Positions 6,205-61,662 of a DNA stretch of 64,000 nt are shown here, piece after piece. The stretch spans positions 65,456 to 129,455 of the forward strand of contig CALRAJ010000003.1 in NCBI GenBank assembly GCA_943350765.1, read 5' to 3'. Each line of letters begins with the position of its first letter. The first letter of the stretch is position 1. Origin of the DNA: Candidatus Tayloriibacteriota bacterium. GTDB lineage: Bacteria > Patescibacteriota > Minisyncoccia > Phycocordibacterales > PALSA-1337. Below the pieces are notes generated by a model, which made no database searches, was not told where the DNA came from, and saw only the letters and a list, made by a program, of their open reading frames with translations. A program made the translations under genes and the position numbers.

Positions 6205-6795
6205 ATGAAAGAATTCTTAAAGAAAAACTTTGCGATACTTCTAGCTTTTATACTGCCTATATTACTTATAATAATCGTGGCTTTGACAGCATATCTTCCG
6301 TCACTTTTTCTTTCCACAAATTATAATTTTGTCTATACCTCATGTACAGACGGTAGGGGCTACTACCCATATCCATGCGCCAACTATCTTCAGAAACGCT
6401 ATTCTGTAGTAGATAATAAATTAGTCACAAATCCTGTCGATACCACTCAAGATTCTGATAAAAATGGTGTGCCAGACTTTAGTGAAAAGTACTCTGACAG
6501 AATCTTTTTGCACGATACAAAAAAGAATGAAAGCAGAGAGATAACCCTAAAAGAGGCACAGCTACTCACCCTAAATGATCTTTTGACCTCAGCTGATGGA
6601 GTTACTGTTTCTAGTGCGTATGATAGGAGGGGTAATGACTTTTCATTTATTTTTGGTGGAGGATCCTCTACCTATGGTTACTATCTTACAAAAGGGAATA
6701 GCCGTAGTAAAATAAACCTCATAAACAGTAGTGATCAGTATTATTACCAAAACAATTTCCAATTTATGGGCTGGGTATTACCAGGTAGAAATTAA
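6205..6795 (+). CDS. hypothetical membrane-anchored protein
   Basis: N-terminal TM helix only. Confidence 0.35.
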   Translation: MKEFLKKNFAILLAFILPILLIIIVALTAYLPSLFLSTNYNFVYTSCTDGRGYYPYPCANYLQKRYSVVDNKLVTNPVDTTQDSDKNGVPDFSEKYSDRIFLHDTKKNESREITLKEAQLLTLNDLLTSADGVTVSSAYDRRGNDFSFIFGGGSSTYGYYLTKGNSRSKINLINSSDQYYYQNNFQFMGWVLPGRN

Positions 6796-7984: not shown

Positions 7985-8740
7985 ATGTTAGAAAAATACC
8001 TTCAAGAAATAGGGCTTAATGAAAAAGAGGCGAGCGTGTACCTAGCCTTACTCCAATACGAAAATGCTTCAGCGATTGATATTTCTGAAAAAACTAAGAT
8101 CAACCGTTCGACCACATACACAGTTTTGGAATCACTGGCAAAAAAGGGTCTAGTAAGTGAGACGACCGTAGGTGTAAAAACTCGATATCACGCAGAATCA
8201 CCAGAGCGTTTGGAGTCTTTTGTTGAAAGACAAAAAGTTATTCTAGAGGAACACTCAAAGCGCTTAAAGGACATTATTCCACAGATCAAGAGTGTGCAGA
8301 GAGAGAGCGGAGAAAAACCGATCGTTCAGTATTATGATGGAAGGGAGGGTATTATTACCTCAGCAGAAAGACTCTATGAGAAAAATGATGAGGGCGGGGA
8401 AGTCTATTTGATGTACTCACGCGACCTGATTACAGATATTTTTTCAGAAACTGAAAATAAAAAATATAGAAAAATAAGACTTGATAAGGGTATTAAGTCC
8501 AAGGTTCTGTACACATACAAAACAGGTGAGCTAAAATCCGATGAAATGGGCGACAGAGTAAAGATTGATGGCGAAAAGTACCCAATAAAATGTGATATTG
8601 CAATATATAAGGATAGAGTACGAATAAACACTCTCACAAAATCTTTATCTAGCGTTTTTATTAAGAGTCAGGATTTGGCGGATACTCTGCGAAGCCTATT
8701 CGACCTAGCACATGATTATATAAAAAAAAGTCGGCCATAG
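7985..8740 (+). CDS. TrmB-family transcriptional regulator
   Basis: N-terminal wHTH LNEKEASVYLALLQYENASAIDISEKTKINRSTTYTVLESLAKKGLV. Start taken at MLEKY. Confidence 0.7.
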   Translation: MLEKYLQEIGLNEKEASVYLALLQYENASAIDISEKTKINRSTTYTVLESLAKKGLVSETTVGVKTRYHAESPERLESFVERQKVILEEHSKRLKDIIPQIKSVQRESGEKPIVQYYDGREGIITSAERLYEKNDEGGEVYLMYSRDLITDIFSETENKKYRKIRLDKGIKSKVLYTYKTGELKSDEMGDRVKIDGEKYPIKCDIAIYKDRVRINTLTKSLSSVFIKSQDLADTLRSLFDLAHDYIKKSRP

Positions 8741-10220
8741 TTACCTATGACCGACTCGCGTACTAGCTTTTAGTATAAATCTATTTCCGATGCCCTTTTC
8801 GTGCTAATCAGAATGATTTTACTAACCAATGAGGTGATTTTTCCCCTAATCAGACTTCACCATAGACTTTACCTTGCCTGCTGGGGTTTTCCCCTTAATC
8901 GGACTCGCCGCTGTGCTGCATAATAGGCCTTTTGGCTTGTTGTTTGTGGTGTGCCTGAGAGAACTCGACTGGAGTGGGCTTCCAATACCGTGTTCTAGTG
9001 CCAATGAGGTCCACTAGAACACGGTACTTTCTGCCTAGCTTAGTCGCTCATTGTGTCCTCCTTTGGCTACAGGTGGCTAGTATTGCCGGCGTCTCATGAC
9101 ACCACCACCCTACATCCAAAAGACAGTATATACTATCTGCGGTACATTTGTCAAGTATTACTAACATTTTTCATGACTAAGGCTATATTACTAGCCATAT
9201 TTTCATATAAATCAACGATTAATAGCCATTTTAAGTGTTTTTAATAAATGACAGAATTATTTTATTAAGAATTATAAAAATAATATGTCAAAGAAATACT
9301 AATAATGTTATATCTCAATAACACTTATATATGTATAAATAGCTTTAAATAAGGATATCATGGTATTTAAAAACGAGAAGTGTCAAAAAGGCTTGACAAA
9401 AATACTGTATCGTGTATACTCATGCACAGATTGATTTTTGATTGCGTTGGGTACTTCTTTGTGTTTCTTTAAAAAACTTCTCGGCCTCCCAGTAATACAG
9501 TGGGGTTTTAAAGAGAACATTTTTGAGAAGCACAAAGAAGTATCCAATTTTATACCAAAATGCACATCATGAGTGATGGCACAACCATGACCCACGCTGA
9601 GTGGCTCGCATGGTTGCGCGGGGAGTAGAAGTACTTCCTATGCTGCGATTGCAGAAATGTGATACGCGGGGTTTGGGTGTCTACCTGGCAAAATAAGGAC
9701 ACAGCAGATCAGAAACAATCAACGGAGAATTTTAAGATTCTCCACTTCATTGGGTTTACAACATTGTGTTGCAAATCCATAGAGTTTAGCTCTTTGAATA
9801 AAAACATTAGGTGTCTGCACTAAATTGTGTTTATGAGAAATGAGAAAGTATAAACATAGCTTAGTGCAGATACTTTGCATGTATCCGAGCACCAGTATCA
9901 CTGATGTGGTGATACGAAGGAAAGTAGGTATATCGTTTGTCGATCCAACAAACTCGCAGGGGGAAATCCTCGGAGTATTGATGGTTGATAAACGAGCCTG
10001 ACGGTACAGAGAACGGCTCTGATTACCGGACTTACTGAGCCCTAAACAGTTATTAGGCTGTTATGGGGGAGGGTAATAACTCCCGCTGACGAAAAGCTAT
10101 CGTCAGTACTTGGTGGATGAATGATCCCAGTGGATCGTTCGGAGGTTGTAGATAGGTCGCGACCTGTCTAGCCTCCACTGCATATAGTTTATTTCGATGC
10201 CCCCAGACACATGGTCTGGG

Positions 10221-10296
10221 TTCTGTCCGAGAGTATTTGCTCTCGCTGATGAGTCCGACCTATAGCGTAAAACGCTTGGCCATGAGGACGAAACAG
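10221..10296 (+). ncRNA. hammerhead ribozyme motif HHR1 (type-III-like topology)
   Basis: cuGUC | stem I cgagaguauuugcucucg | CUGAUGA | stem II gucc...ggac | GAAAC | ag. Predicted cleavage after C10227. Confidence 0.6.
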
Positions 10297-10621
10297 AATG
10301 TTCTTTAAAATAAGTACATCTACGCAAATAGTGTTTGAAATATCGATCACTGCTTGCGCAGATGTACATAGAAGACATCAAAGCGCCCACGGGCGACCGT
10401 GAGCACTTGATATTTGGAGCAAAATAAGGGCGTTGACCTTTATTTTGGAACCATGCAACTTCCGATTCATTTCGGAAGGCTTTTTTCAAGTTAAATCAGC
10501 TTCATTGCTGGATGTTGGATGATCACCGACAGGTAACCACTCGAATATTATTTGAGTGAACCACTTCTAGACTTCCTCCTTCGTAAATCCTGCCTAACTT
10601 CGGGTATAGGTTGAAGGGGGT

Positions 10622-10696
10622 TTCTGTCCACGAATATCATTCGTGCTGATGAGCTAGTCTAATACCGCATGGAGGTTGATGACAATAGCGAAACAG
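10622..10696 (+). ncRNA. hammerhead ribozyme motif HHR2
   Basis: cuGUC | stem I cacgaauaucauucgug | CUGAUGA | stem II cuag..uag with large loop | CGAAAC | ag. Cleavage after C10628. Confidence 0.5.
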
Positions 10697-10847
10697 AATG
10701 TTCTTTGAATAATTCGTCATAGCAGAAAGTGGCTCAAGTCTTGGGCTATTCTCCGCTATGACGAAACCTGTCGGTTACGTATAGCAAACGCACCCAAACC
10801 TTTTAAATAAGGGTTGTTTAGCGATAACGTTACCGCCTTGTAATATT

Positions 10848-11465
10848 ATGAATAACAATAAATTCAGCCTCGGTCGTAGTTCAGAAAATCTGGTGGTTCT
10901 CAAGAACGGTCAACCGTTCTTCACCAGTCCCATTGCAAACGCTTGCATGGGTTCCCTGGAAGTTGGACTTCAACTTCCTAATCTCCCTGTGACCAAGAAA
11001 GACGACAGCGTCTGCACTGGTTACATGGAGCCTTACTGGGGTAATGCCCATACCGAAATTCTCGTTGCTGGAGGGAGTTGCTGTGATGGTTACTTGATGG
11101 GCGTAAGTCCTGACGGTAAACTCACAAAAATTCTTGCCATCGACTTCAACATTCGATGCATCGCACCATTTATCTACACCATTCCTGCAAAGGAAGCTGG
11201 GAAAGATGAGCATGTGATGCTCGGGTTGTTGGTTTCGGGATCAGGCTGTTCGGGTTGCGGTGTCAGGTTTGTGGATTTCAATAGGCCAACACCTATTTCC
11301 ATGCCTGTCATTTCAACCGAGGAAGCGGCGAAGCGTTCCAACTTCTGGCTTAACGGCGGTGACCCATTCAGCGTTGCTGATATTTGGGACCGTTTGGCTA
11401 AACTCGGCATCACTGCTGACAAGGAGAGGACCGCAATGGCTTCAAAAGCCTTCGTCGCCTTCTAA
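10848..11465 (+). CDS. hypothetical protein (cassette ORF A)
   Basis: 205 aa, Cys/Gly-rich. No recognisable domain. Confidence 0.45.
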   Translation: MNNNKFSLGRSSENLVVLKNGQPFFTSPIANACMGSLEVGLQLPNLPVTKKDDSVCTGYMEPYWGNAHTEILVAGGSCCDGYLMGVSPDGKLTKILAIDFNIRCIAPFIYTIPAKEAGKDEHVMLGLLVSGSGCSGCGVRFVDFNRPTPISMPVISTEEAAKRSNFWLNGGDPFSVADIWDRLAKLGITADKERTAMASKAFVAF

Positions 11466-11556
11466 CGAACAGAGGGACTGCGGCATCGGCACGCGGGCTA
11501 TGCATACTAGCTGGCAACAGAATAGTATGAACCGGGATTAGTAATTTACTAATCAA

Positions 11557-11607
11557 TACTGTCCGAGAGTGCGTACTCTCGCTGAAGAGCTCAAAAGAGC
11601 GAAACAG
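11557..11607 (+). ncRNA. hammerhead ribozyme motif HHR3 (minimal)
   Basis: cuGUC | cgagagugcguacucucg | CUGAAGA | g cuc aaaa gag c | GAAAC | ag. Cleavage after C11563. Confidence 0.6.
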
Positions 11608-11924
11608 AATGTTCTTAAAACCAAAAATCTTTAACCTCCGCTTTATTTATTTTATTCCGAAATAGAATGCATAAAGCGGAGGTGTAAAGAACGCCACTCC
11701 GACTTCACCGAAGGGAAGGGCGGTGGTCGTAACCACTGTCAGCAACTAAACCGCACTCAAACATTGGCAGGTTGAAAACTGTCTTGGGTAATTCCAGATA
11801 ATGAGCAGTCATTATTATTTGAGAGGTGTAGTTGCAAGCTATAAATCATAAGCCAAGGGTGGCAAATTACCACCCTGTTGATTTATAGAAGGAGAATGCT
11901 CAGTAATTCAATACCCAGCCTTCT

Positions 11925-11982
11925 CCACTTTATTGAGTTCATAAAGAAATTTGTGGATTCATAGAGTTCTTTGAATTTTATG
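11925..11982 (+). promoter_or_regulatory. conserved leader hairpin motif, copy 1
   Basis: ctttattgagttcata...tgtggattcatagagttctttgaattttATG. Stem tgagttcata/tgtggattca holds only if GU wobbles are allowed. Homologous to 13051-13124 and 15818-15886. Confidence 0.5.
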
Positions 11983-12228
11983 TGGTATGACTGGGAATGG
12001 ATACAGTGGGCCAAGGAAGAGTGGTGGTATCTGGAAGTTAAACCTGAGAGTCCTCTCGGGAGGAAAATCAGATGGAAACTTCTGGTGAAAGCCGCTCTTG
12101 CTTATCTGCGTTCCGGAAAAGTCCAAGAAGAAAACTCAACCATCAGGGATGCCGTCAGGCTGGCACACGGGTGGGTGCAGAGTAATTTTCAGGGAATCGG
12201 AGTGTGGTTGGGCACTGGTCAACACTAA
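11980..12228 (+). CDS. hypothetical small Trp-rich protein (cassette ORF B)
   Basis: ATG at 11980 (MWYDWEW...), directly after the leader motif. Short, so low confidence. Confidence 0.3.
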   Translation: MWYDWEWIQWAKEEWWYLEVKPESPLGRKIRWKLLVKAALAYLRSGKVQEENSTIRDAVRLAHGWVQSNFQGIGVWLGTGQH

Positions 12229-12314
12229 CCATTTAAAACTGCCATATAAGTATGGCGGAGCACGGGTCACGGCTTGGCAACAGAATTGTGACAAATAAAT
12301 CTTGGTGTGCAGAA

Positions 12315-12397
12315 ACATGTGATGATACAGCATTATAAATGTATCCGTAATTCCTCGGTGAAGTTCCGAGGCGCCTGACGAGCGGAAATTGTTGGGG
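12315..12397 (+). repeat. composite intergenic repeat, blocks X plus Y, copy 1, continuous with HHR4
   Basis: acatgtgatgatacagcattataaatgtatccgtaat followed by hairpin ccucggugaaguuccgagg and cgccugacgagcggaaauuguugg. The same blocks recur at 16278-16384 and partly at 12854-12907. Confidence 0.55.
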
Positions 12398-12411
12398 ATC
12401 GCAAGATTCTC

Positions 12412-12466
12412 CTCTGTCTCGGAATGTGTTATTCCGACTGATGATGACTCAAAAGAGTCGAAACAG
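12412..12466 (+). ncRNA. hammerhead ribozyme motif HHR4 (minimal)
   Basis: cuGUC | ucggaauguguuauuccga | CUGAUGA | ug acuc aaaa gagu c | GAAAC | ag. Cleavage after C12418. Confidence 0.6.
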
Positions 12467-12538
12467 AGTGTTCTTTAAAATATATTTCATAGCACAGTCT
12501 CATTAAAGGGTCGATTTTCGATTTGATGGGAGTGTGCT

Positions 12539-12769
12539 ATGAAATATAAAACAAATTGGAAGCCGATTGTAGGAAGTCTCGATGAGTTACCTGTGCTAAG
12601 GAGCGCAACAACCCTAAGTGGGGTTGTTGAGTCAGCTTCTCGGACAGGGTCACTCGTTGTCCTTCTCGACGATGGAAGCAAGGTTGGAGTTTCAGGTGGA
12701 AAATATGCCCAAAAAGGACAAAGGGTCATACTCACTGATGGGGCTGATGGAGGTTATGTTGTGGCCTAA
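12539..12769 (+). CDS. hypothetical small protein (cassette ORF C)
   Basis: 76 aa, Gly/Val-rich. Confidence 0.35.
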   Translation: MKYKTNWKPIVGSLDELPVLRSATTLSGVVESASRTGSLVVLLDDGSKVGVSGGKYAQKGQRVILTDGADGGYVVA

Positions 12770-12853
12770 AAATCCAAGGTAATCCTAGCGGAGGCTAGTA
12801 CAACACTCACCACTCCCGCACATTCTCGGTGGGACAAAAAGTGGTCAAATCAT

Positions 12854-12907
12854 GGGACGTAATTCTTCGGGGAAGCTCCGAAGCGCCTAGCGAGCGGAAA
12901 TTGTTGG
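12854..12907 (+). repeat. partial X'-Y repeat without hammerhead
   Basis: gacgtaattcttcggggaagctccgaagcgcctagcgagcggaaattgttgg, homologous to 12340-12397. Confidence 0.5.
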
Positions 12908-13050
12908 TTTGGTAGTTGCTCCACAGCATACTTTATGGCACTTGCGTGTTAACTACTCAAGTGCAAAGGATCTACTCGTAGGCTTGATGGGTGAACCCGT
13001 CGGCATAAGAAAGAGTTGGCAAAAGATCCTGCTTGAGAACCACCTATTCT

Positions 13051-13124
13051 CGAGCACTTTATTGAGTCCATACAGTGAAATATTCTTATGGACTCATTGA
13101 GTGATTGTTTTTTGTGAATAAAAT
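13051..13124 (+). promoter_or_regulatory. conserved leader hairpin motif, copy 2
   Basis: gagcactttattgagtccata cagtgaaatattct tatggactcaa, a perfect 11-bp stem. The ATG of ORF D lies 27 nt downstream. Track ORF 12909-13100 overlaps it and is probably non-coding. Confidence 0.55.
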
Positions 13125-13574
13125 ATGAAAAAAAGAGGCGACACGGTTAGGTTCAACGACGTACACTTCGTTGTGTATCAGATTGTCAGGCCGATAGCCA
13201 TTGAGGGGGTCTTTGTGCTTCCTCTGGTGTTTGCTACGATGCCACTCACAACATCTGAACTTTTGGTAACCACCCCGAGAGGTCAGATGATAGCTCAGTG
13301 TTGGAATATGCGGAATGTCTCTGAAAAAGCTTTTGGACGGCTTGGAGATTCTGAGATAGGCATACTTTCCTTGGGGGAGATGGATCGCGTCCGGTTCGTT
13401 GTAAGGAATTTTTGGTCTGGATCCGATATTCCTCCTCATGTCGCGGAGTACTACGGGATTCATCCGATTGGCGATGACCACCCCGATCTTGAGCAGTACC
13501 TCAGAAGCTGGACTCGGAAAGTTGATCCGATTCAGGTGGATATCCGTGCCGAACTTTTTGGAAGGGGCATGTGA
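13125..13574 (+). CDS. hypothetical protein (cassette ORF D)
   Basis: 149 aa; GC noticeably higher than the flanking housekeeping genes. Confidence 0.4.
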   Translation: MKKRGDTVRFNDVHFVVYQIVRPIAIEGVFVLPLVFATMPLTTSELLVTTPRGQMIAQCWNMRNVSEKAFGRLGDSEIGILSLGEMDRVRFVVRNFWSGSDIPPHVAEYYGIHPIGDDHPDLEQYLRSWTRKVDPIQVDIRAELFGRGM

Positions 13575-13592
13575 GTTTTTCGGAATCAATAA

Positions 13593-14021
13593 GTGGACGA
13601 TGTAACGTTCACTTTCTTATCAAGTCCATCAACGATGGTGGGCTTGTTGGAAAAACGACAGAATTTCGAATTATCTATGAGCACAAATTTTCAGTCGGCA
13701 ATGGTCGAATGGGTTCTGACGGGAAACAATACGGAGGAAGACCCTTTTGAGTTTGAGTTCCATGCGATAACCAGCGATGAGGAGAGTAAGTTTCTTAGGC
13801 CGTTTGTCGTCGCTACAGTGTGGGTGGCCGGTGACGATTATGGTTTAATCGGGCCGTGCCTAGATAGATTGTTTGAAGAGAGTCGGTTTGCAGGCATGGC
13901 CCGTTACGGAAATGTTCGGCTGTCAACCATCGGTCTCGTTGTTTTTGATGGTATTGGAAAACTAACCTTCGCTTTGACTGATGAAGGTCAGTATGTGTGT
14001 TGTTTCGATAGTTTCACTTGA
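13593..14021 (+). CDS. hypothetical protein (cassette ORF E)
   Basis: 142 aa. Its first 25 codons are duplicated at 15250-15318. Confidence 0.4.
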   Translation: MDDVTFTFLSSPSTMVGLLEKRQNFELSMSTNFQSAMVEWVLTGNNTEEDPFEFEFHAITSDEESKFLRPFVVATVWVAGDDYGLIGPCLDRLFEESRFAGMARYGNVRLSTIGLVVFDGIGKLTFALTDEGQYVCCFDSFT

Positions 14022-14281
14022 TGGACCGCCGATCTCCATGGTACATGATCGGCAATTTATCAAGCTCGGCATTTTCCACACTGTAAAGTTGGAAAAATGA
14101 TGAGCTTGTAGATTTGATTTCAGTTCTTTGAAATCTCGTAACACATTTCATGTTCGACAGGTGAATGGGGACAGTCTAGACCCCCGTTCACTTGTTGAAA
14201 AATCCAAATAGGCATATCTGGAAGTTGCAAAAAAGCGACAGGATATGAGGGGTAGAGATTGCATCAATATTTCTATTTTTT

Positions 14282-15187
14282 GTGATGAGTGAACTTGTTA
14301 TGAAAATCACAATCTTGGTGAAGTGTGTCCAACTCGACCCCCGCCCTCAAGGCGCGGGAGGCAACGAGGAGTTTTTCCGCGGTAACCGCGTTCTCGGCAT
14401 CGAAGTCACGATTCCGAGCCTTGCGGCCCGCTGTATCGCTAACCTCGACCACCATGGCGAACATGACACAGCGGAAACGCCAAGTGCCTGTGAGCAAGCT
14501 CTCACCAAGAGCCTCGGCAATACTGGCGTAATCATGGCGACGGTTCGGCCTGATGCTGACTCGGTGACCGCCATGGCGGTTTTGGCACGGCAGCTCGAAG
14601 GCCTGTCAGTGGATGAAGACCTCATCCGCGCGGTCGGAGCCTTCGACCGGCTGGGGCCAGCTGCCGGGCGTCCGGAAGATCGCGTCATTGCGATCGCTCG
14701 GAAGGCGATGGACTTCAAGATCCTCCTGTGTGATCGGGTGATCTGGGTGGCTGACCTTATCGGGGGTGAGGACAAGTCGGCCGAGGTCGCGACTTTGGTG
14801 GCGTCTCACGATGCCGACATCGCCGCGGCTCGGCAGGCATCGCAAATCAGCACCCGCTCTTCCAAAGGGGTGATGATCGCATCGGTCACCTCTACTCACC
14901 GCAACGCCACCCTGCTCGGCTACGAGGCTGGACAGGTGGTGGTGGCGTTTAACCCCACCATGGCGGTGGACCCGAAGTCGCCCTCTGCCGGTACCTACGA
15001 GAAGTTCACGGTCTGCAGGTACGACTCCCATGTCAGGTGCGATTTGCCCTCAGCTCTCAAAGAACTTCAAGCTCTCGAAGTTGGGTGGGGTGGTCGCGGC
15101 GACATCTTCGGGTCCCCTCAGGGTGTCAGTTCGACCTTAGTGACGGCACAGGTGTTGGAAGTGGTTGCTCGCCACTGCTACGAATAA
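14282..15187 (+). CDS. hypothetical protein, markedly GC-rich (cassette ORF F)
   Basis: 301 aa, Ala/Arg/Gly-rich. Several antisense ORFs overlap it, as expected for high GC. Composition differs from the host genes. Confidence 0.4.
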   Translation: MMSELVMKITILVKCVQLDPRPQGAGGNEEFFRGNRVLGIEVTIPSLAARCIANLDHHGEHDTAETPSACEQALTKSLGNTGVIMATVRPDADSVTAMAVLARQLEGLSVDEDLIRAVGAFDRLGPAAGRPEDRVIAIARKAMDFKILLCDRVIWVADLIGGEDKSAEVATLVASHDADIAAARQASQISTRSSKGVMIASVTSTHRNATLLGYEAGQVVVAFNPTMAVDPKSPSAGTYEKFTVCRYDSHVRCDLPSALKELQALEVGWGGRGDIFGSPQGVSSTLVTAQVLEVVARHCYE

Positions 15188-15249
15188 GTTTTGACGGCGT
15201 TTGAGCAACGCCATCACATACCGCAATATGTGATTTCGAATCAACATGT

Positions 15250-15318
15250 AAATCAACAAGTGGACGATGCGGCGTTCACTTTCTTATCAAGTCCATCAAC
15301 GATGGTGGGCTTGTTGGA
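15250..15318 (+). repeat. direct repeat of the 5' end of ORF E
   Basis: caacaagtggacgatgcggcgttcactttcttatcaagtccatcaacgatggtgggcttgttggaaag is near-identical to 13585-13655. It encodes MDDAAFTFLSSPSTMVGLLERRGYQ and then a stop. Confidence 0.6.
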
Positions 15319-15406
15319 AAGAAGGGGATATCAATGATCCCGAAGTGGTTATTGAGAGGGCTAGACGGCAGATGGCCGAGAATTATGAAGGATTAGATTG
15401 AAAATT

Positions 15407-15570
15407 ATGGGAAAAGGTACGAAGTCCTTCAAGGTGTCAGGCGGTTCGGGAGGAAAGCGTGGTCACTCTAACATGTGCCATTGGACAGTTACTGCTGAAA
15501 TCAAGGCAGTTTCCAAGAGGGCGCGTCGTCTGGAAACCAAGCGTCTCATCGCTACTGAACGCCAAGACTA
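15407..15570 (+). CDS. possible small basic protein (54 aa)
   Basis: MGKGTKSFKVSGGSGGKRGHSNMCHWTVTAEIKAVSKRARRLETKRLIATERQD. Below the ORF-track size cutoff and speculative. Confidence 0.2.
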
Positions 15571-15817
15571 GAAGGCAATAACACCTTGCAAAAGGTTGCC
15601 ACAAAATCCGGTGGTGTAAATCAAGGTAAACAGTTTTGTCCCCGTTTTTTCTGAAAAAAATGGATGAGCCTAGAGGAAGCAGAGCCTCAAATGTTTTGTT
15701 CTTAAGGGGATCAATTTTTGCTAGCAAGAATTGATAAAGGATCTATCCCATAGCGTGATGAGAAATCATCGGCGTAAGGGGTGGCACAGATCCATGCTCA
15801 AAGAAAGGACCTAATCT

Positions 15818-15886
15818 TGAGCACTTTATTGAGTCCGTGCAGTGAAATACATTCGCGGATTCATAGAGTTCTTTACAAATTATGTT
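15818..15886 (+). promoter_or_regulatory. conserved leader hairpin motif, copy 3
   Basis: cttgagcactttattgagtccgtg cagtgaaatacatt cgcggattca tagagttctttacaaattatg. The stem is kept by compensatory and wobble changes relative to copies 1 and 2. Confidence 0.55.
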
Positions 15887-16219
15887 ATGAGTATGAAAAC
15901 CAACTCAGTTATCGGGGCTGTCATTTTGGTAGTCGTAATCTTCCTAACCACTGGTTGTGAGGAGGCTGACAAGAGTCAGTTCAACCTCACATCGTTTCCG
16001 ACTAACCACTGGAAAGTGGTCGGTCAGGGAACGAATGGGCAAGTCGTCGTCGAGACGACATCCACTAACCTGTTGCAGTACTTTCGGGTACACCTAGCGA
16101 CAGCTGTGGTTCCCTTGACTAACGGGCAATCGGCCCGACTCGAGGTAACCACAAGGTGGAATCCCAGGAAAGGGGTGCGGGAGATTATCTCCTCCATGGC
16201 TTATCCAGCGATGGAGTGA
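15887..16219 (+). CDS. hypothetical lipoprotein (cassette ORF G)
   Basis: MSMKTNSVIGAVILVVVIFLTTGCEE is a signal peptide plus lipobox Cys. First in-frame ATG after the leader motif. Confidence 0.4.
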   Translation: MSMKTNSVIGAVILVVVIFLTTGCEEADKSQFNLTSFPTNHWKVVGQGTNGQVVVETTSTNLLQYFRVHLATAVVPLTNGQSARLEVTTRWNPRKGVREIISSMAYPAME

Positions 16220-16277
16220 TGAAGTAAGGTTGAAATTGAACCTCTAAAATTCTCCTCTCCTGCAGAGTGCGCAGGGA

Positions 16278-16384
16278 ACATGTGATGGTACAGCATTATA
16301 AATGTATCCGTAATGTGATTTGGCTAATACCAAATCCGACTCTGGGGAAGCTCCGGGGCGCTTGACGAGCGGAAACTGTTGGGG
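16278..16384 (+). repeat. composite intergenic repeat, blocks X plus Y, copy 2, continuous with HHR5
   Basis: acatgtgatggtacagcattataaatgtatccgtaat, then a 30-nt insert, then ctctggggaagctccggggcgcttgacgagcggaaactgttgggg. Confidence 0.55.
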
Positions 16385-16398
16385 ATCATAAGATCCTC

Positions 16399-16453
16399 CC
16401 CTGTCTCGGAATGTGTTATTCCGACTGATGATGGCTCAAAAGAGCCGAAACAG
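16399..16453 (+). ncRNA. hammerhead ribozyme motif HHR5 (minimal)
   Basis: cuGUC | ucggaauguguuauuccga | CUGAUGA | ug gcuc aaaa gagc c | GAAAC | ag. Cleavage after C16405. The stem II changes a-u to g-c relative to HHR4 and so are compensatory. Confidence 0.6.
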
Positions 16454-16499
16454 AATGCTGGTGTGCTTGTTGGAAAAATTACGGTATTCGTATTTCCCT

Positions 16500-16835: not shown

Positions 16836-16938
16836 TCCATGCGATAGGCGGTCATAAAAGTTTTCAAAGTGCCTGACCAGCACTTTTTTATTTTGTAATA
16901 CATCTCTTAAAATGCTAGTATGAGGGCTATATAATAAT

Positions 16939-19900
16939 ATGACAGATGAAACTAAAAATAAGCTGATACAGCCTTTAATTCCAGTACAGAAAAGCTTGGT
17001 TGCTCAAAAAGAGGAGGAAATTCTCGCTTTTTGGCAGAAAAATAATATTTTCAAAAAGACTATCGAAAAGCCTGCACCAAAAGGTGATTTTGTGTTTTAT
17101 GATGGACCACCTTTTGCTACGGGTCTGCCACATTTTGGGCATCTTTTGCCAACCTCGATCAAAGACGCTATTCCTCGTTATAAAACCATGCAGGGCTTTC
17201 GGGTAGCTCGTCGCTGGGGCTGGGACTGTCACGGTTTACCTATAGAAAATCTGGTGGAAAAAGAGCTTGGACTGAAAACCAAGCAGGACATTGAAAGCTT
17301 CGGTGTAGGAAATTTTAATAAGGCCGCACGGGATACTGTATTGCGATACGCCTCGCAATGGAAAGAAATCATTCCCCGCATCGGGCGTTTTGTGGATATG
17401 GAGGACGATTATCGTACTATGGATGCTTCCTATACCGAGTCCGTCTGGTGGGTATTTAAAACACTTCATGAAAAGGGCCTCGTACATCAGGGCTTCAAGT
17501 CCATGCAACTCTGTCCGAGATGTGAGACCACACTATCAAACTTCGAAGTCAATCTAGGGTATAAAGACATTACTGATATTTCAGTATTTGTAACCTTTCC
17601 ACTTCTAGAGGATCCTAGTATTTCACTTATTGCATGGACCACAACACCATGGACTTTGCCCGGTAATGTAGCTCTCGCGGTGGGGGCGGATATTGTGTAT
17701 GTACAGATTGCGCTTGAAGGTAAAAAGTATATTGTAGCAAAGGAGCGAGTGGGGCAGGTGGCAAAGGATAAGGCGTATACGATCGAGAAGGAATTTAATG
17801 GCACTGATTTGGTAGGTAAAAAATATGTACCGATTTTTGATTATTATATAAATGATACGGCACTCGCAAATAGAGAAAATGGCTGGAAAATAGTAGTAGG
17901 AGATTTTGTGACTACGACTGATGGCTCAGGTATTGTGCATATTGCTCCAGCTTTCGGGGAAGACGATTATGAGCTCTCAAAGCGAGAAAAATTGCCTTTT
18001 GTGCAACATGTTACAACAGGTGGATTATTTAAAAAAGAGGTTACGGATTTTGCTGGACAGTCAGTAAAGCCAAAAGAAGACCCTACTCAGACCAAGTCTG
18101 ACGGGCAAGTCCATCAGAAGGCTGATATCGAAATTATCAAACATCTCGCTCACGCGGGACGACTTTTTGGTAAAGAAAAAATTATTCACTCGTACCCGCA
18201 CTGTTGGCGTTGTGAGACCCCACTTTTAAATTACGCTTCTTCGTCGTGGTTTGTAAATGTACCAAAGATCAAAGACCGACTGGTAGCAGAAAATAAAAAG
18301 ATTGGCTGGACGCCAGAGTTTGTGGGAGAGGGAAGGTTTGGCAACTGGCTGTCTGGAGCGAGGGAGTGGGCGATTTCTCGCTCGAGATACTGGGGTGCAC
18401 CACTGCCAGTCTGGAAATGTAGTGAATGTGACAAAAAAGAATTCATAGGCTCAGTAGAAGAGCTCAAAAAGCATCTCAAGCCGAGAAACACCTATTATGT
18501 GATGAGACATGGTCAGTATCCGGGGAACGCAGAAGGTTTCTTGTGTTCAGGGCTCGACTGCGCAGGATTGACAGATGTTGGTCGTGGTGAAGCGATTAAA
18601 GCTACTAAAACTCTTTCTGACACAAAGATTGATTTGATCATAACCTCACCTCTTGCGAGAACAAAGGAGACCGCATATATCGTTGCAGAAAATTTGGGTA
18701 TTACAAAAGAAAAGATTGTTGAGGATGAGCGACTTCAGGAAATAAAGTTTGGTATTTTTAACGGTAAGCCTGCTGGGGAATACCATAAACAATTTGAAGG
18801 TGGAGGTGATGGCTGGTTCACAAAAGGTCCTGTGGATGCAGAAAGTCATTTGCAAGTAAAACACCGAATGGGGGATGCTCTTTATGACCTAGAACAGAAA
18901 TATCAAGGTAAAAAGATTTTGATTGTGACACACGATACTCCAGCGTGGCTTTTGATAGCCGCTTCTTTGGGGCTTAATCAAAAAGATACTATCGATCTTC
19001 ATCCTGGTGGGGATTTTATGAAAAATGCTGAAGTCAAAGAAATGCCTTTTGTAACAATTCCACATAATGCTGACTACGAGCTCGACCTCCACCGGCCGTA
19101 TATCGACGAGGTGACTTTTACCTGCTCATGTGGAGGAATAATGAAGCGAGTGCCAGAGGTTTTTGATTGTTGGTTTGAGTCTGGCGCAATGCCTTATGGT
19201 CAAAATAAGTATCAAGGTACAGCACTTTCTGGATTTGATCCAAAAAGTGCTATGGGTTTCCCTGCTGACTTTATTGCAGAAGGACTAGATCAAACTCGTG
19301 GCTGGTTTTACTCGATGCTCGTCCTAGGTGTAGCTTTGTTTGATAAAACTCCTTATAAAAATGTTATCGTAAACGGAGTGATTTTGGCAGAGGACGGACG
19401 AAAGATGTCAAAATCACTTAAAAATTATCCAGACCTGATGCTCACGGTAGATAAATACGGTGCAGACGCTTTGAGGTACTATTTGCTCGCATCACCATCG
19501 GTGCGAGCCGAAGACGCTTGTTTTTTTGAAAAAGGTGTAGATGAAGTAGTAAAAAAGCACATCGGTCGTCTGAACAATGTCTACACATTCTATGCTCTAT
19601 ATTCCCAAGGCGAAAACGCACTATCTGCGAGTGCGGACTCTAAAAACATTCTCGATATATGGATACTTGCGAGACTAGCCGAGCTGGTAGAGACGGTAGA
19701 AGCCTCGATGGAAAAATACGAGCTAGACCGAGCATCTCGACCGATTGCCGATTTTATAGACGATCTTTCCACTTGGTATATTCGTCGTTCAAGAGACCGT
19801 TTCAAATCAGAAGATATTGCGGATAAAAAATCTGCACTACAAACTACGAGGTTTGTGCTGGAACATTTATCAAAAGTGATCGCACCTTTTATGCCGTTTT

Positions 19901-20499
19901 TGGCAGAAGATATATATCAAAAAGTGAAAGGTTCAAACGGGTTTGAAAGTGTCCATTTGGCAGAGTGGCCTCAGGTGGATTTTGTAGATAAAGCACAACA
20001 GCTAAAAGTAATCACCAGCATGCAAGAAGTTCGAAAGATCGTAACACTAGGTCTTGAAGCTAGGATGCGAACAAAAATAAATGTGAGGCAGCCACTTTCG
20101 GTACTAAAAATAAAGCTACCCGTATCAATATCTATTGCTGAAAAAGAAATGATTGCTTTGATAGCTGATGAGGTAAATGTTAAGCGGATTGTATCAGATG
20201 AAACAATAAATACTGAAGTGGAACTGGATACCCTGATCACCCTAGAGCTAAAAGCCGAAGGGCAGGTCAGAGAGCTTATTCGAGCTATTCAGGATTTACG
20301 AAAGAAACAAGGTCTGACCGTTACGGATAGACCTGTGCTTTCTGTGGCGACAAGTGATATTGGTAAAAAACTCTTGACCGATTTTAAAAAAGAAATCAGT
20401 AGAGCGACTCAGCTAAGAGAACTTTTGATTTTAGATACTGGGGTGGGGGAAAGGGTGGTTTTGGACGAAGTTATTTTCGAGCTTGTTCTCGTTATGTAG
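16939..20499 (+). CDS. ileS: isoleucyl-tRNA synthetase with an inserted histidine-phosphatase (PGAM-like) domain
   Basis: HIGH-type motif PHFGHLL, WTTTPWTLPGN in the editing domain, KMSKS, and anticodon-binding C-terminus. At 1186 aa it is over-long because of a domain at about 18487-19010 (YYVMRHGQ...IVTHDT). Confidence 0.9.
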   Translation: MTDETKNKLIQPLIPVQKSLVAQKEEEILAFWQKNNIFKKTIEKPAPKGDFVFYDGPPFATGLPHFGHLLPTSIKDAIPRYKTMQGFRVARRWGWDCHGLPIENLVEKELGLKTKQDIESFGVGNFNKAARDTVLRYASQWKEIIPRIGRFVDMEDDYRTMDASYTESVWWVFKTLHEKGLVHQGFKSMQLCPRCETTLSNFEVNLGYKDITDISVFVTFPLLEDPSISLIAWTTTPWTLPGNVALAVGADIVYVQIALEGKKYIVAKERVGQVAKDKAYTIEKEFNGTDLVGKKYVPIFDYYINDTALANRENGWKIVVGDFVTTTDGSGIVHIAPAFGEDDYELSKREKLPFVQHVTTGGLFKKEVTDFAGQSVKPKEDPTQTKSDGQVHQKADIEIIKHLAHAGRLFGKEKIIHSYPHCWRCETPLLNYASSSWFVNVPKIKDRLVAENKKIGWTPEFVGEGRFGNWLSGAREWAISRSRYWGAPLPVWKCSECDKKEFIGSVEELKKHLKPRNTYYVMRHGQYPGNAEGFLCSGLDCAGLTDVGRGEAIKATKTLSDTKIDLIITSPLARTKETAYIVAENLGITKEKIVEDERLQEIKFGIFNGKPAGEYHKQFEGGGDGWFTKGPVDAESHLQVKHRMGDALYDLEQKYQGKKILIVTHDTPAWLLIAASLGLNQKDTIDLHPGGDFMKNAEVKEMPFVTIPHNADYELDLHRPYIDEVTFTCSCGGIMKRVPEVFDCWFESGAMPYGQNKYQGTALSGFDPKSAMGFPADFIAEGLDQTRGWFYSMLVLGVALFDKTPYKNVIVNGVILAEDGRKMSKSLKNYPDLMLTVDKYGADALRYYLLASPSVRAEDACFFEKGVDEVVKKHIGRLNNVYTFYALYSQGENALSASADSKNILDIWILARLAELVETVEASMEKYELDRASRPIADFIDDLSTWYIRRSRDRFKSEDIADKKSALQTTRFVLEHLSKVIAPFMPFLAEDIYQKVKGSNGFESVHLAEWPQVDFVDKAQQLKVITSMQEVRKIVTLGLEARMRTKINVRQPLSVLKIKLPVSISIAEKEMIALIADEVNVKRIVSDETINTEVELDTLITLELKAEGQVRELIRAIQDLRKKQGLTVTDRPVLSVATSDIGKKLLTDFKKEISRATQLRELLILDTGVGERVVLDEVIFELVLVM

Positions 20500-29925: not shown

Positions 29926-30172
29926 AGATAAATTCTAAAATAAGAGCTTCTATCCTATTGACAGATAGTTAAGACTGGTATATAATGTATATAGAATTTT
30001 GAGTCATTGAAAATATGCAAATTCGCCACAGCTTTGGCCTCGAAAGGGCTTTTGAGTCGAAAGCTGTGGCGAAACATCATCTTTTTCGGAACACTCTTCT
30101 TGGTGGGTTTGGTAGTAAACCAAGGCACGCGAAGACTCCAGAAAAAATGGTGCAATAGCCGGCAAAAACACA

Positions 30173-30823
30173 ATGAGCAATCAAAACAATCAGACCGCAG
30201 CTGCTATCGGGGCTATCACAAACGCGGTGGACTGGGAAGCCCAAGGTCTCAACCTCCAGGCTATCGTCGAGGCTGGAAACCAAGGCAAGCTTGGTGGCCC
30301 GCTCACGAAGTGGTTCATCGAGTATGGCTGGCTTACCCCGGCGCAAGCGATGAAAGTCGAAGTCCTGCCGAAAGACGCAGAGCTTCCCAATGGCATCATC
30401 TCCATCAACCGCACCACTCCGCTTCGGCATCCCGAATGGGTGAAAGAACCTCTCTACGACGAGAGCATGGGTCCGGCCGAGATCGACCCATCGAAAGCCG
30501 AGCAGTGGCTCCACGACAGCCAGAAAACTGGTGTCGTCACCGGCACGGTAATCCACGATTATCTTGTCGAGAAAAAGATGATCGAGAGTTGCTATGGCCT
30601 CCGCGAATTGCTCGCCATCCAGGCCAAAGGCATCGCCTACTTCCGCAAGCATTTCAAAGGCATGGCCGTCTTCGGCTGGAAGGGCACGGTGCGGCATCGC
30701 GACGACAACCTTCACGTCCCGTATCTCGTCGATGACGGCGGCAAGGTCATCCTGCACTGGTACTGGCTCGACAACGACTGGAGTTCCCGCAACCCCGCCC
30801 TTCGCGTCGCAAGTGGCTCTTGA
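30173..30823 (+). CDS. hypothetical protein in GC-rich islet
   Basis: 216 aa. The GC-rich segment starts abruptly near 30000. Overlapping antisense ORFs are probably artefacts. The 3' end is duplicated at 31204-31331. Confidence 0.4.
   Translation: MSNQNNQTAAAIGAITNAVDWEAQGLNLQAIVEAGNQGKLGGPLTKWFIEYGWLTPAQAMKVEVLPKDAELPNGIISINRTTPLRHPEWVKEPLYDESMGPAEIDPSKAEQWLHDSQKTGVVTGTVIHDYLVEKKMIESCYGLRELLAIQAKGIAYFRKHFKGMAVFGWKGTVRHRDDNLHVPYLVDDGGKVILHWYWLDNDWSSRNPALRVASGS
30686..30812 (+). repeat. direct repeat DR1 (3' end of ORF 30173-30823)
   Basis: About 127 bp, near-identical to 31204-31331. Confidence 0.6.
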
Positions 30824-30872
30824 GCCCTTGGATACTCGGGCACTTCGGGTCCTTGGACCCTTTGTGCTTTGA

Positions 30873-30910
30873 CCCTCCGCACTGAAAAGTGTGTGAGGGT
30901 TTTCTTTTTA
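30873..30910 (+). terminator. rho-independent terminator
   Basis: ccctccgcac tgaaaa gtgtgtgaggg followed by ttttcttttt. Confidence 0.45.
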
Positions 30911-31203
30911 TACTGAAGACAATATGCTAAAATTCTTAGTGGTAGTAGGTGAATATGCGGGCGGTCAAGGCTTCCCGCTACCGAACCCAGTATCCATGAG
31001 CTGAGAGCGTCTGCGGTCACGGCTTCAGACGGAGGGCTCATGCCGTCTACAGGTGCCTATCATGGACTTGTAGGCTAGACACTTCAAAAAAAGAAGTTAC
31101 TTGGTGAAGAGGACTGGTGCATTATGATGCAAAATACGATTCAACTCTGAGATCGCTACGGGGCTTCGAGGGGTGGTGTTACAGATGGTCTTCTTCACAA
31201 TAC

Positions 31204-31331
31204 GACGGTGCGGCATCGCGACGACAACCTTCACGTCCCGTATCTCTACGATGACGGCGACAAGGTCATCCTGAACTGGAACTGGCTCGACAACGACTGG
31301 AGTTCCCGCAACCCCGCCCTTCGCGTCGCAA
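31204..31331 (+). repeat. direct repeat DR2 (truncated second copy of the ORF 3' end)
   Basis: Encodes TVRHRDDNLHVPYLYDDGDKVILNWNWLDNDWSSRNPALRVA. There are 4 nonsynonymous differences from DR1. Confidence 0.6.
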
Positions 31332-31392
31332 CTCACTTCATTTCCCAGTGCCACAAAATGTGGCGCTGGGTTTTTTATGTTATTATTTTATT

Positions 31393-59740: not shown

Positions 59741-60836
59741 AATAAAAACGCCCTAGTATATACTATCCGTTACCTGAATATGTTGAAGAATCACTTTAAA
59801 AAGCGCTAAAGATAACGGATATTTTTCTGTTGTTTTTAGAACCGCTTAAAAAAGCGGATTTTTGTTTCCAAAAAGGAAACACCCAACCGAATGGTGCGAG
59901 GTTTAGGGCTAAATCATTCACGAAGGCGAATGATCGCCCGACTCCACGAAATGGAGTTTAGGGTCCAGAAACGACCGTCACTTTGAAAAATAAATCCTAT
60001 CGTCGTATCAACTTGCGGTGTACTCTTTTGGGTATACGCGTGGGTCTTTTCGGTACGATAGATAGCTGTACTGCGGAAACGCAGTACAAAACCTTTATCA
60101 GGTTTTCAATCAGGATCTGGTAAAGCGAATTGGTAAGTCTGTGGGGAGAAATCTTCACAGACAATTGTAAGTAAATAATTGTGGTTTTTAAATTTCCTAA
60201 TAGGAAATTAAGAGCATATGGTGGATGCCTTGACTTGAAGAGGCGATGAAGGACGCGGTCTGGCTGCGATAAGCTTCGGGGAGGTGCCTAGCAACCTTTG
60301 ATCCGAAGATTTCCGAATGGGGAAACCCCTCGTGCTTGACACGAGACTCTGTAGCAATACAGAGAGCATACCCAGGGAAGTAAAACATTTCATTACCTGG
60401 TGGAAAAGAAAACAATGTCCGCAAGGACAATATTTCCTAAGTAGCGGCGAGCGAAAAGGAAAGAGCCCAAACCGAAGCATCACGGTGAGTGTGATAGATG
60501 AGGCGAAAGTCGAAAGTACGAAGTCTAAGGTCGATTCAAAATGCAAACACTATGCATTTGAGTTCACTTTTGACTTTTAGGCTTAGGACTTTCGACTTGT
60601 GCATCGTACCCAGCGTGATGCTTCGGGGTTGTAAGGTGAGAGCGTTCTATTTATAGAAGTAGAGTTAAAAAATAGTGTATTAGCTTAAATATCTGAAAAG
60701 ATATACCCTAGAAGGTTATAGTCCCGTAAGCGAAAATATACTATCTCTATTGTTCTCATTCTTGAGTACCTCGAGACACGAATGGCTCGGGGGAATCTGC
60801 CGGAACTAACCGGTAAGGCTAAATACTCTTCAAGAT

Positions 60837-60875
<39 letters not shown>

Positions 60876-61630: not shown

Positions 61631-61662
<32 letters not shown>

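Follow-up and report, generated by a model that had tools for sequence, protein, structure and literature searches.

What are five hammerhead-like sequences doing between the small genes of a single array on a bacterial chromosome? They lie in a 64-kb stretch of DNA (the window), where a first-pass annotation had pointed to five hammerhead ribozyme copies (HHR1 to HHR5) with a conserved core and helices kept by compensatory substitutions. Judged from their sequences and predicted folds, all five are genuine type III hammerheads of a compact, phage-type design, with cleavage itself predicted. They occupy 6.2 kb of a probably horizontally acquired gene island, are all intergenic, on the + strand and co-oriented with the genes, and lie in one putative transcription unit. 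Their most likely role, to which we assign a probability of roughly 0.7, is the co-transcriptional cutting of a polycistronic island RNA into separate messages. Clustered type III hammerheads in mobile gene arrays are a kind already described in 2011; what is new here is the probable host, a member of the Candidate Phyla Radiation (CPR), together with near-invisibility to Rfam thresholds, a conserved 3′ tail, a pseudoknot (PK) motif, a hairpin that we call motif c, and a conserved 401-nt unit that lacks an open reading frame (ORF).

Five type III hammerheads

Pattern search, folding and a covariance model agree on five motifs at the places first proposed (Table 1). Both as read and as folded, every copy has the type III order of stem III 5′ strand, GUC, hairpin I, CUGA(U/A)GA, hairpin II, GAA and stem III 3′ strand, with stems I and II closed by loops and stem III open; a search pattern with type I order gave chance matches only. 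Each copy carries C3 U4 G5 A6 N7 G8 A9, G12 A13 A14, the A15.1-U16.1 pair and an H17 that is not G, and across 35 relatives the nucleotide at this cleavage-site position is always C, U or A. The core, which had been described as invariant, is intact in all five; HHR3 differs in reading CUGAAGA, a permitted variant, position 7 being free. One additional U stands between A9 and G10.1 in HHR4 and HHR5; a possible precedent is A10 of CChMVd. The contiguous pairs of stem III number only four (CUGU/ACAG) in HHR3 and HHR5, and HHR5, less so HHR3, may be impaired by this weak stem.

The stem I strings quoted in the first-pass annotation are correct, and the paired positions proved complementary once the coordinates were checked. 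Its stem II strings consist of correct pairs and lack only the closing G10.1-C11.1 pair; the A-U to G-C change that it noted between stem II of HHR4 and of HHR5 is real, and the stem II inserts of HHR1 and HHR2, given as about 30 nt, are 29 nt each. The loop 1 sequences are UGUGUA (U-GUGU-U-A), UGCGUA, UAUUUG and UAUCA, all of which fit UNmYN. Loop 2 is AAAA in HHR3 to HHR5 and fits RNnA, while in HHR1 and HHR2 loop 2 is the 29-nt insert and cannot be judged. These two loop motifs mediate loop-loop docking in most natural hammerheads (PMC2632901). The five copies belong to a compact design, with a UN3UA loop 1, a stem II of 4-5 bp capped by AAAA, and the stem III pairing CUGU/ACAG.

The pattern CTGANGA-N6-36-CGAAAC matches the window five times against 0.19 matches expected, and none of 100 dinucleotide shuffles reaches five. 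Because Rfam missed most of the window copies, we built our own covariance model from a seed of 13 minimal copies, among which HHR3 is the sole window copy. Over both strands of the 64 kb at E ≤ 10 this model returned exactly the five copies, with E values from 1.4e-20 to 1.7e-9.

An alignment of the five loci shows covariation beyond that of shuffled sequences. The covariation alignments were fitted to the model and hold related sequences, which inflates the figures, and the contrast with slid registers is still large: among the five copies 92.9% of cells are standard-paired (79.5 ± 2.3 when shuffled), stems I and II are 100% paired, and registers shifted by 1-3 columns pair to at most 51%. 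Eight of the 17 pairs are changed on both sides, where the shuffle mean is 3.7 and none of 500 shuffles reaches eight. The five copies are not five independent samples, since HHR4 and HHR5 are recent duplicates, lying inside a ~190-nt intergenic duplicate of 79% identity, and HHR1 and HHR3 have stem I in common. When the alignment is widened to 35 family members (window plus genome contigs, mostly CPR metagenome-assembled genomes, MAGs), 90.6% of cells are paired versus 68.9% when shuffled, 14 of 17 pairs are changed on both sides, and shifted registers reach at most 47.5%, figures that share the inflation just mentioned. Stem I is 98.6% paired in this set with double changes at 6/6 pairs, and stem II 98.5% paired with double changes at 3/4 pairs. 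The original argument, that a conserved core with covarying helices is what functional ribozymes show, is therefore supported, and more strongly with relatives (the 35 members, the docking loops, and the 134 copies from viral contigs below) than from the five copies.

Relatives in CPR MAGs and phage contigs

Loci found in genome and metagenome scans are given L-numbers below. A scan of one genome per species, for the core together with the sequence 3′ of the ribozyme (CGAAACAGARTGTTCT), yielded 17 loci, 13 of them in Patescibacteria/CPR MAGs assigned to Saccharibacteria, Taylorbacteria, Parcubacteria, Paceibacterota and unclassified Patescibacteria. Our model found 30 further copies in other loci. 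Clusters recur: L017 has eight copies in 4.4 kb with a tandem duplication, L004 (a Parcubacteria MAG) has four and L014 has three. A large serine recombinase is encoded at L017 6869-7900 (−), 2.4 kb from the cluster there.

The IMG/VR viral collection gave no match when the CPR tail was required in the pattern and, without the tail, the same compact design in 94 contigs. The 80 of these that were fetched contain 134 model matches, often three or four per contig, and 17% of these copies lie inside open frames of at least 100 aa compared with 71% of random positions. In the family as a whole, conserved over more than 160 copies, loop 1 has the form UN3UA, with AAAA or GAAA as loop 2. By their predicted structure the five window copies belong to a large phage and mobile-element subfamily of hammerheads that the Rfam type III model largely misses. 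We found no report of a link between hammerheads and CPR bacteria in the literature searched.

Two side observations concern the relatives. L130 and L134 carry at ~6530-6590 a variant hammerhead with U opposite U at 10.1/11.1 (CUGAUGA-UUCC-GAAA-GGAU-GAAAC) and the cleavage site GUA. In L014 a Ro60/TROVE + vWA protein (34-1245) is encoded immediately upstream of the hammerhead cluster; bacterial Ro60 orthologs elsewhere adjoin the RtcB ligase, which joins exactly hammerhead-type ends.

An ordered set of elements around the ribozymes

The PK motif is an H-type pseudoknot consisting of P1, P2, the 12-mer UGGCAACAGAAU and then 5-6 nt that pair with the loop of P2. The 12-mer is invariant in the two window copies, at 11512 and 12275, and in L001, L002, L007 and L017, and a metagenome scan added about 20 more copies of the motif (loci including L114-L137). 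In an alignment of 18 sequences 98.3% of cells are paired, against at most 48% in slid registers, and double changes occur at 4/4 pairs of P2 and 4/5 pairs of the pseudoknot. No Rfam family was matched by the motif, either at E ≤ 10 in a 106-nt scan or at gathering thresholds on the related loci. A subtype in L017 and L125 has no visible pseudoknot.

In nearly every copy a stop codon lies 0-14 nt 5′ of P1 (12 nt for window copy 1, 10 nt for copy 2), and the upstream ORFs are mostly unrelated to each other. What follows 3′ of the motif is a hairpin and a hammerhead in eight distinct loci, a hairpin and motif c in five, and an intrinsic terminator in six or seven. Because the PK motif precedes hammerhead, motif c or terminator alike, the hammerhead slot is that of a 3′-end-forming signal. 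The motif also contains AACAGAAU, 8 nt identical to the 3′ strand of hammerhead stem III.

Motif c is a bulged hairpin with the conserved lower stem CUUYAU-U-GAG / YUC-AUAGAG, an invariant U-G pair and a variable top. Four copies are in the window and at least 13 in other loci, and copy 0 shares the consensus of the 16-copy alignment. With the variable apical part swapped for an artificial loop, 94.2% of cells in the stem arms are paired and 8 of 15 pairs covary. The motif occupies the hammerhead slot and, like the hammerheads, has a GUUCUUU tail on its 3′ side; it has no Rfam match at permissive thresholds. It may represent a site of the RNase III type or a previously unknown self-cleaving motif.

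Next to the ribozymes themselves, a hairpin of 6-8 bp ends 0-7 nt 5′ of stem III in all five copies. On the 3′ side stands the tail GUUCUUUAAA / AAUGUUCUUU(A/G)AA, which is nearly invariant in four of the five window copies and in most CPR relatives. In the form GUUCUUU(A/G)AA it marks the CPR subfamily, and phage copies of the same design do not have it. The sequence of the tail imitates that of the stem III 5′ strand (GUUCUGU), and no conserved pairing partner was found for it. Several explanations of the tail were discarded. As a leader peptide (AUG UUC UUU AAA) it fails in that several copies have GUG, ACG or AAG for AUG, the frames are only 4-35 codons long, and GUUCUUU follows motif c without an AUG; as a sigma-70 promoter the tail, and likewise motif c, has poor hexamers at variable spacing; and as an extension of stem III it would need an upstream partner in a flank that is not conserved.

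A long hairpin of ~60 nt usually lies 3′ of the tail, and different MAGs have hairpin families in common; the type found after HHR2, for example, also stands 3′ of a hammerhead in L017 (4417-4506). The hairpin after HHR4 holds a Shine-Dalgarno-like box and start codon in its 3′ arm, which suggests translational masking of the next small ORF. This layout recurs in L002 (~80-130) and L007 (~1145-1195), with ORFs that start MKYK.., MNTK.. and MTTK.., and in relatives the ribozyme often ends 8-20 nt 5′ of a Shine-Dalgarno box and ATG.

The stretch from the HHR1 to the HHR2 cleavage site would be released as a 401-nt unit if both cut. It has no + strand ORF of at least 40 aa and contains a hairpin at 10313-10372 plus covarying hairpins flanked by GGAACCAUGCAAC..UCAAGUUAA and by GGUAACCAC..GUGAACCACU. 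It is conserved with L004 (−) 1796-1410, an ORF-less unit of ~390-400 nt that also lies between two hammerheads. The window and L004 units could each encode a 13-aa peptide (MQ...SS); the changes between them look compensatory for RNA pairing.

Two further motifs were seen in the same intergenic regions. Motif a (12340-12400, which includes CUGACGAGCGGAAA; 12858-12907; 16320-16395; and L001 (−) ~6150-6100) is a covarying 6-bp hairpin (CCUCGG/CCGAGG, CUUCGG/CCGAAG, CUCUGG/CCGGGG) followed by CGC-YUNRCGAGCGGAAAYUGUUGG. It precedes HHR4 and HHR5 and in one case stands without a hammerhead. Despite a resemblance we do not consider it a degenerate hammerhead, since a stem II is missing and the other two copies read CUAGCGA and UUGACGA instead of keeping the CUGANGA box. 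Motif b (13584-13653 and 15251-15320, 94% identical, with a partial copy at 16460-16480) stands before ORFs and consists of two adjacent hairpins ending in GGGCUUGUUGGAAA, with fold z-scores of −5.0 and −3.3; it was found only in this genome. Gene callers place an ORF start inside it; a conserved N-terminal peptide is not supported, as copy 2 has only 48 codons before the frame shuts and the downstream gene uses a different frame.

Table 1 Positions and structural details of the ribozymes and associated features in the window
Feature	Position	Strand	Details
Promoter-like site TTGACA-16-TATACT	9393-9420	+	11/12 matches; likely start of the island operon
Motif c copy 0	9745-9784	+	CUUCAU-U-GGGUUU...AAAUCC-AUAGAG, then UUUAGCUCUUUGAAUAAAA tail
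HHR1, type III hammerhead	10220-10299	+	Cut predicted between C10227 (= C17) and C10228; own model 63.2 bits, E 2.8e-15; RF00008 41 bits; stem III GUUCUGU/ACAGAAU; stem I CGAGAG/CUCUCG; core CUGAUGA; stem II GUCC/GGAC with 29-nt insert
401-nt unit, released if HHR1 and HHR2 both cut	10228-10628	+	
Tail (A)AUGUUCUUU(A/G)AA	10300-10311, 10699-10711, 11611-11622, 12469-12481	+	Single-stranded; abuts stem III
HHR2, type III hammerhead	10622-10698	+	Predicted cut 3′ of C10628; own model 52.7 bits, E 2.5e-12; stem I CACGAAU/AUUCGUG; stem II GCUA/UAGC with 29-nt insert
Long hairpin after HHR2	10713-10765	+	Inverted repeat, UUCGUCAUAGCAG...CUAUGACGAA
ORF, 205 aa	10848-11465	+	No family match; 60%-identity homolog upstream of the PK motif in L137
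PK copy 1	11478-11529	+	P1 CUGCG..CGCGG; P2 GGCUA/UAGCU; UGGCAACAGAAU at 11512-11523; loop CAUAC pairs with GUAUG 11525-11529
HHR3, minimal type III hammerhead, CUGAAGA core	11555-11610	+	Predicted cut 3′ of C11563; own model 81.9 bits (copy in model seed); stem I CGAGAG/CUCUCG; stem II GCUC/GAGC
Motif c copy 1	11928-11966	+	Then UUCUUUGAAU and start of 85-aa ORF
PK copy 2	12239-12292	+	P1 CUGCCAUA/UAUGGCGG; invariant 12-mer at 12275-12286; loop GUCAC pairs with GUGAC 12288-12292
HHR4, minimal type III hammerhead, extra U after A9	12412-12468	+	Predicted cut 3′ of C12418; own model 63.8 bits, E 1.9e-15; stem I UCGGAAU/AUUCCGA; stem II GACUC/GAGUC
Long hairpin after HHR4	12481-12548	+	3′ arm holds GGGAG Shine-Dalgarno-like box and ATG (12539) of 76-aa ORF
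Motif c copy 2	13057-13101	+	Upstream of 149-aa ORF (13125)
Motif c copy 3	15824-15868	+	Then UUCUUUACAAA and lipoprotein-like ORF
HHR5, HHR4 paralog with extra U	16401-16456	+	Predicted cut 3′ of C16405; own model 42.7 bits, E 1.7e-9; RF00008 30.2 bits; stem I as HHR4 (UCGGAAU/AUUCCGA); stem II GGCUC/GAGCC; stem III only CUGU/ACAG; standard tail replaced
Intrinsic-terminator-like hairpin and U run	16866-16886	+	Likely end of the island operon
Isoleucyl-tRNA synthetase (IleRS) promoter-like site	16907-16935		Directly past the island terminator

Proposed role of the hammerheads

From the observed sequences, structures, covariation, placement and interchangeability of modules we infer cleavage, co-transcription of the island and a stabilizing effect of the new RNA ends. 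While the polymerase transcribes the operon, each hammerhead would fold and cut 3′ of its GUC. The upstream piece would then end in a stable hairpin, 7-9 nt and a 2′,3′-cyclic phosphate, with the PK motif just before that hairpin in two cases, and the downstream piece would begin with a 5′-OH, the folded ribozyme body and the tail GUUCUUUAAA, in many cases followed by a long hairpin, ahead of the next ORF. The ribozyme could in this way stand in for an intrinsic terminator plus a new promoter, giving a protected 3′ end and an insulated 5′ end with transcription continuing, and each cistron or non-coding unit would gain its own stability and translation. We read the hammerhead as a punctuation mark because it replaces a terminator after the PK motif and hairpin and precedes the same leader as motif c. 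In vitro, tandem prophage hammerheads have been shown to cleave polycistronic RNA at every site expected (PMC3088659), and the purpose of bacterial hammerheads was still called undefined in a 2019 review (PMC6765202).

Several observations weigh against this proposal. Simple separation of messages fails for the HHR1-HHR2 pair because the interval between them has no ORF. Stem III and the tail are near-invariant across CPR phyla while stems I and II drift, which plain cis-cleavage leaves unexplained. The hairpins that precede stem III are little more stable than shuffled sequences (z from −0.8 to −2.0, and +0.2 for HHR4). Some copies may be slow or dead, given the 4-bp stem III of HHR3 and HHR5 and the extra core-adjacent U of HHR4 and HHR5, and the identification of the host is indirect. 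Finally, Rfam RF00008 at E ≤ 10 reports only HHR1 and HHR5, both below its gathering score of 48.5. At gathering thresholds Rfam finds no hammerhead in the window; HHR3 has only a partial Hammerhead_HH9 match, HHR2 is not reported, and HHR4 is unreported even in a 1.8 kb scan. The gathering score is passed by only one of ~35 family members tested. Every structural feature of the class is present in the copies, so we take the low scores as a gap in the RF00008 seed and not as counting against membership.

Those same scores are the best argument for dismissing the five as chance matches or as decayed relics without catalysis, since all are below the gathering score and three go unreported as Hammerhead_3; HHR5, with its 4-bp stem III, has also lost the family tail. 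Five matches where 0.19 are expected, compensatory changes among copies, a core intact in every copy and conservation over more than 160 copies make that explanation extremely improbable, and at most one or two single copies would be relics. The 401-nt unit would be the clearest case for production of a retrozyme- or viroid-like circular RNA, with hammerhead pairs excising units that circularize: the 3′ end of the unit (..UUCUGUC>p) would pair with its own 5′ ACAGAAU and rebuild a hammerhead, and the hammerhead or an RtcB-type ligase would close the RNA. Stem III (CUGU/ACAG, usually UUCUGU/ACAGAA) is nearly invariant within and between clusters where stems I and II vary freely, the window and L004 each have a conserved ORF-less unit of ~390-400 nt between two type III hammerheads, two similar units occur in L017, and a Ro60/TROVE homolog adjoins the L014 hammerheads. 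Perreault et al. raised the possibility of circular or spliced products, but sought them and found none (PMC3088659). Moreover, the 5′ strand of the L004 3′ hammerhead pairs with the body of the 5′ ribozyme through 4 bp only, most hammerhead-flanked units are ordinary ORFs, neither RtcB nor reverse transcriptase was seen among the window ORFs scanned, and no long direct repeats surround the window ribozymes. We consider this explanation improbable.

The surrounding RNA elements also bear on whether cleavage is conditional. If the hammerheads were switches, the PK motif, motif a, adjacent hairpins and stem II inserts would gate the formation of stem III, and cutting would decide whether ribosome-binding sites hidden in the long hairpins further 3′ can be reached. 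The AACAGAAU in the PK motif, 25-125 nt upstream of the stem III 5′ strand, equals the stem III 3′ strand; hairpins overlap or abut the stem III 5′ strand; HHR1 and HHR2 carry 29-nt stem II inserts; and a hairpin arm contains the Shine-Dalgarno box and ATG of the ORF at 12539. In L117 and L137, however, stem III has become UUACUGU/ACAGUAA and the PK motif keeps ACAGAAU, so the suggested pairing fails to covary; neither this nor the terminator-only copies support a pairing of the ACAGAAU with the hammerhead 5′ strand. The PK motif precedes a plain terminator without a hammerhead equally often, and the docking loops are those of fast constitutive hammerheads, so that regulated cleavage seems quite improbable to us. 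The hammerhead and tail module might instead be a selfish passenger that spreads among CPR mobile islands, active but without a role in island expression. The ~190-nt duplicated block around HHR4 and HHR5, the identical tail and hairpin modules in distant MAGs, and L017, with eight copies in 4.4 kb, a tandem duplication and a serine recombinase nearby, count in its favour. The ordered placement (stop codon, PK, hairpin, hammerhead, tail, ribosome-binding site) and the invariably gene-matched orientation are unlike random insertion, and terminal repeats and target-site duplications were not found; we give this explanation a low probability.

Cutting of the island RNA into messages remains our preferred reading. 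A bolder version of it, which we think rather unlikely as a whole, would place the hammerheads among the interchangeable parts of a so far undescribed system of RNA punctuation in the mobile islands of CPR bacteria, with the order stop codon, PK (UGGCAACAGAAU), hairpin, hammerhead or motif c or terminator, tail GUUCUUUAAA and next gene. In its most novel form motif c or the PK motif would be a new self-cleaving class, and alternatively or additionally the 401-nt unit would be released as circular RNA. New ribozyme classes have been found earlier by looking near hammerheads.

Comparison with known systems

Like the viroid, satellite and retrozyme members of RF00008 type III, the window copies have a three-way junction with an open stem III, CUGANGA/GAA, A15.1-U16.1 and GUH, and like natural hammerheads of that family they combine a UNmYN loop 1 with an AAAA or GNRA loop 2. 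They differ in that the family resides in bacterial and phage DNA and not in RNA replicons or eukaryotic repeats, in scores below threshold (34 of ~35), in the CPR tail GUUCUUU(A/G)AA, and in the extra U after A9 of two copies. The closest precedents are the clustered prophage hammerheads of Clostridium scindens, Azorhizobium caulinodans and Agrobacterium tumefaciens (Perreault et al. 2011; PMC3088659). There too several co-oriented copies within a few kb flank single genes or short blocks of mobile origin, and cutting of polycistronic RNA into gene-length pieces was proposed. In the present case the host is probably a CPR bacterium, the island has no integrase or phage gene, all copies are type III, their order relative to PK motif, motif c, tail and long hairpins is fixed, and one flanked unit is non-coding. 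Plant and animal retrozymes likewise have a non-coding unit of a few hundred nt between two type III hammerheads in direct orientation; the window differs from them in its bacterial context and mostly coding flanked units, and in lacking long direct repeats and evidence of reverse transcription or circles.

Two other systems offer functional analogies. The RiboJ-type insulator, associated with Lou and colleagues in 2012, reportedly joins the sTRSV hammerhead and a hairpin before a ribosome-binding site. The window copies resemble it in having a type III hammerhead, a hairpin and then a ribosome-binding site, so that by analogy a cut would remove the upstream context and leave a 5′-OH and a structured 5′ end; unlike RiboJ they are natural and repeated between cistrons, and the downstream hairpin sometimes buries the ribosome-binding site (that of HHR4). 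In the early genes of phage T7, as Dunn and Studier are said to have described, RNase III hairpins process the mRNA between genes. The likeness would lie in intercistronic punctuation and a protective 3′ hairpin on the upstream message, and motif c resembles such a site; with hammerheads, unlike in T7, the predicted cut is made by the RNA itself and not by a host enzyme.

The ordered context turns the general statement that hammerheads process polycistronic RNA into specific predictions on 3′-end protection and 5′-end insulation. The survey also brings out a large hammerhead subfamily (~35 copies from genome contigs and 134 from phage contigs, with one pattern each) that is nearly invisible to routine Rfam annotation, and indicates that mobile islands rich in ribozymes occur in the reduced genomes of CPR bacteria. 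No database entry exists for two conserved RNA motifs and one hammerhead-flanked conserved non-coding RNA.

The island and its surroundings

The window is bacterial chromosome, with RecA, FtsK, IleRS, GlyRS and MetRS genes, and corresponds to a MAG (GCA_964952345.1; ENA ERZ27265268). The uncultured host most likely belongs to the CPR (Patescibacteria), an indirect assignment based on the introns of its rRNA and on the taxonomy of all close relatives of the island's RNA modules. The hammerheads of the window appear to belong to a GC-rich, horizontally acquired operon that spans ~7.5 kb and comprises nine small orphan genes. The hammerhead stretch has 45-51% GC versus ~40% in the flanks and genome. 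One strong promoter-like and one terminator-like site bracket the island, all its called genes are on the + strand, and housekeeping genes flank it. Between the promoter-like site and HHR1 there is no ORF. The nine island ORFs gave no convincing match to Pfam, PHROGs, PADLOC or NCBIfam, the called island genes have no Pfam records, no integrase was found in or near the island, and no recognizable phage gene was found in it.

Other CPR loci share colinear parts with the island: L004 matches the leader 9862-10388, L017 the hairpin after HHR2, and L001 and L002 the region before HHR3. Two island proteins have homologs, one of them in L004 and the other in L137. The foreign GC content, orphan ORFs, colinear CPR loci and the L017 recombinase lead us to view the island as a horizontally moving set of modules and not as a recognizable prophage.

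Elsewhere in the window a second GC-rich insert (29960-31340, 51% GC) begins with a perfect TTGACA-17-TATAAT promoter-like site near 29961 and a structured leader. It contains an orphan 216-aa ORF (30173-30823), whose last ~125 nt are repeated at 31208-31335 before a TatD gene, and it has no match in Rfam at permissive thresholds or in Pfam. The 23S rRNA gene (60345-64000) has several large insertions, with 3655 nt for 2504 model positions (1599 bits), and includes a LAGLIDADG endonuclease ORF at 62789-63331, a pattern typical of intron-bearing CPR rRNA genes. No tRNA genes were found in the 64 kb. The isoleucyl-tRNA synthetase gene (16939-20499) encodes an inserted histidine-phosphatase (His_Phos_1) domain. 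Lastly, an ORF-less stretch of ~390 nt at 8728-9120 (−) is a candidate non-coding RNA, divergent from the island operon and without an Rfam match at E ≤ 1. It lies between a promoter-like site close to the consensus (9154-9125) and a strong hairpin resembling a terminator (8757-8728), and its fold has a z-score of −5.95 relative to shuffled sequences.

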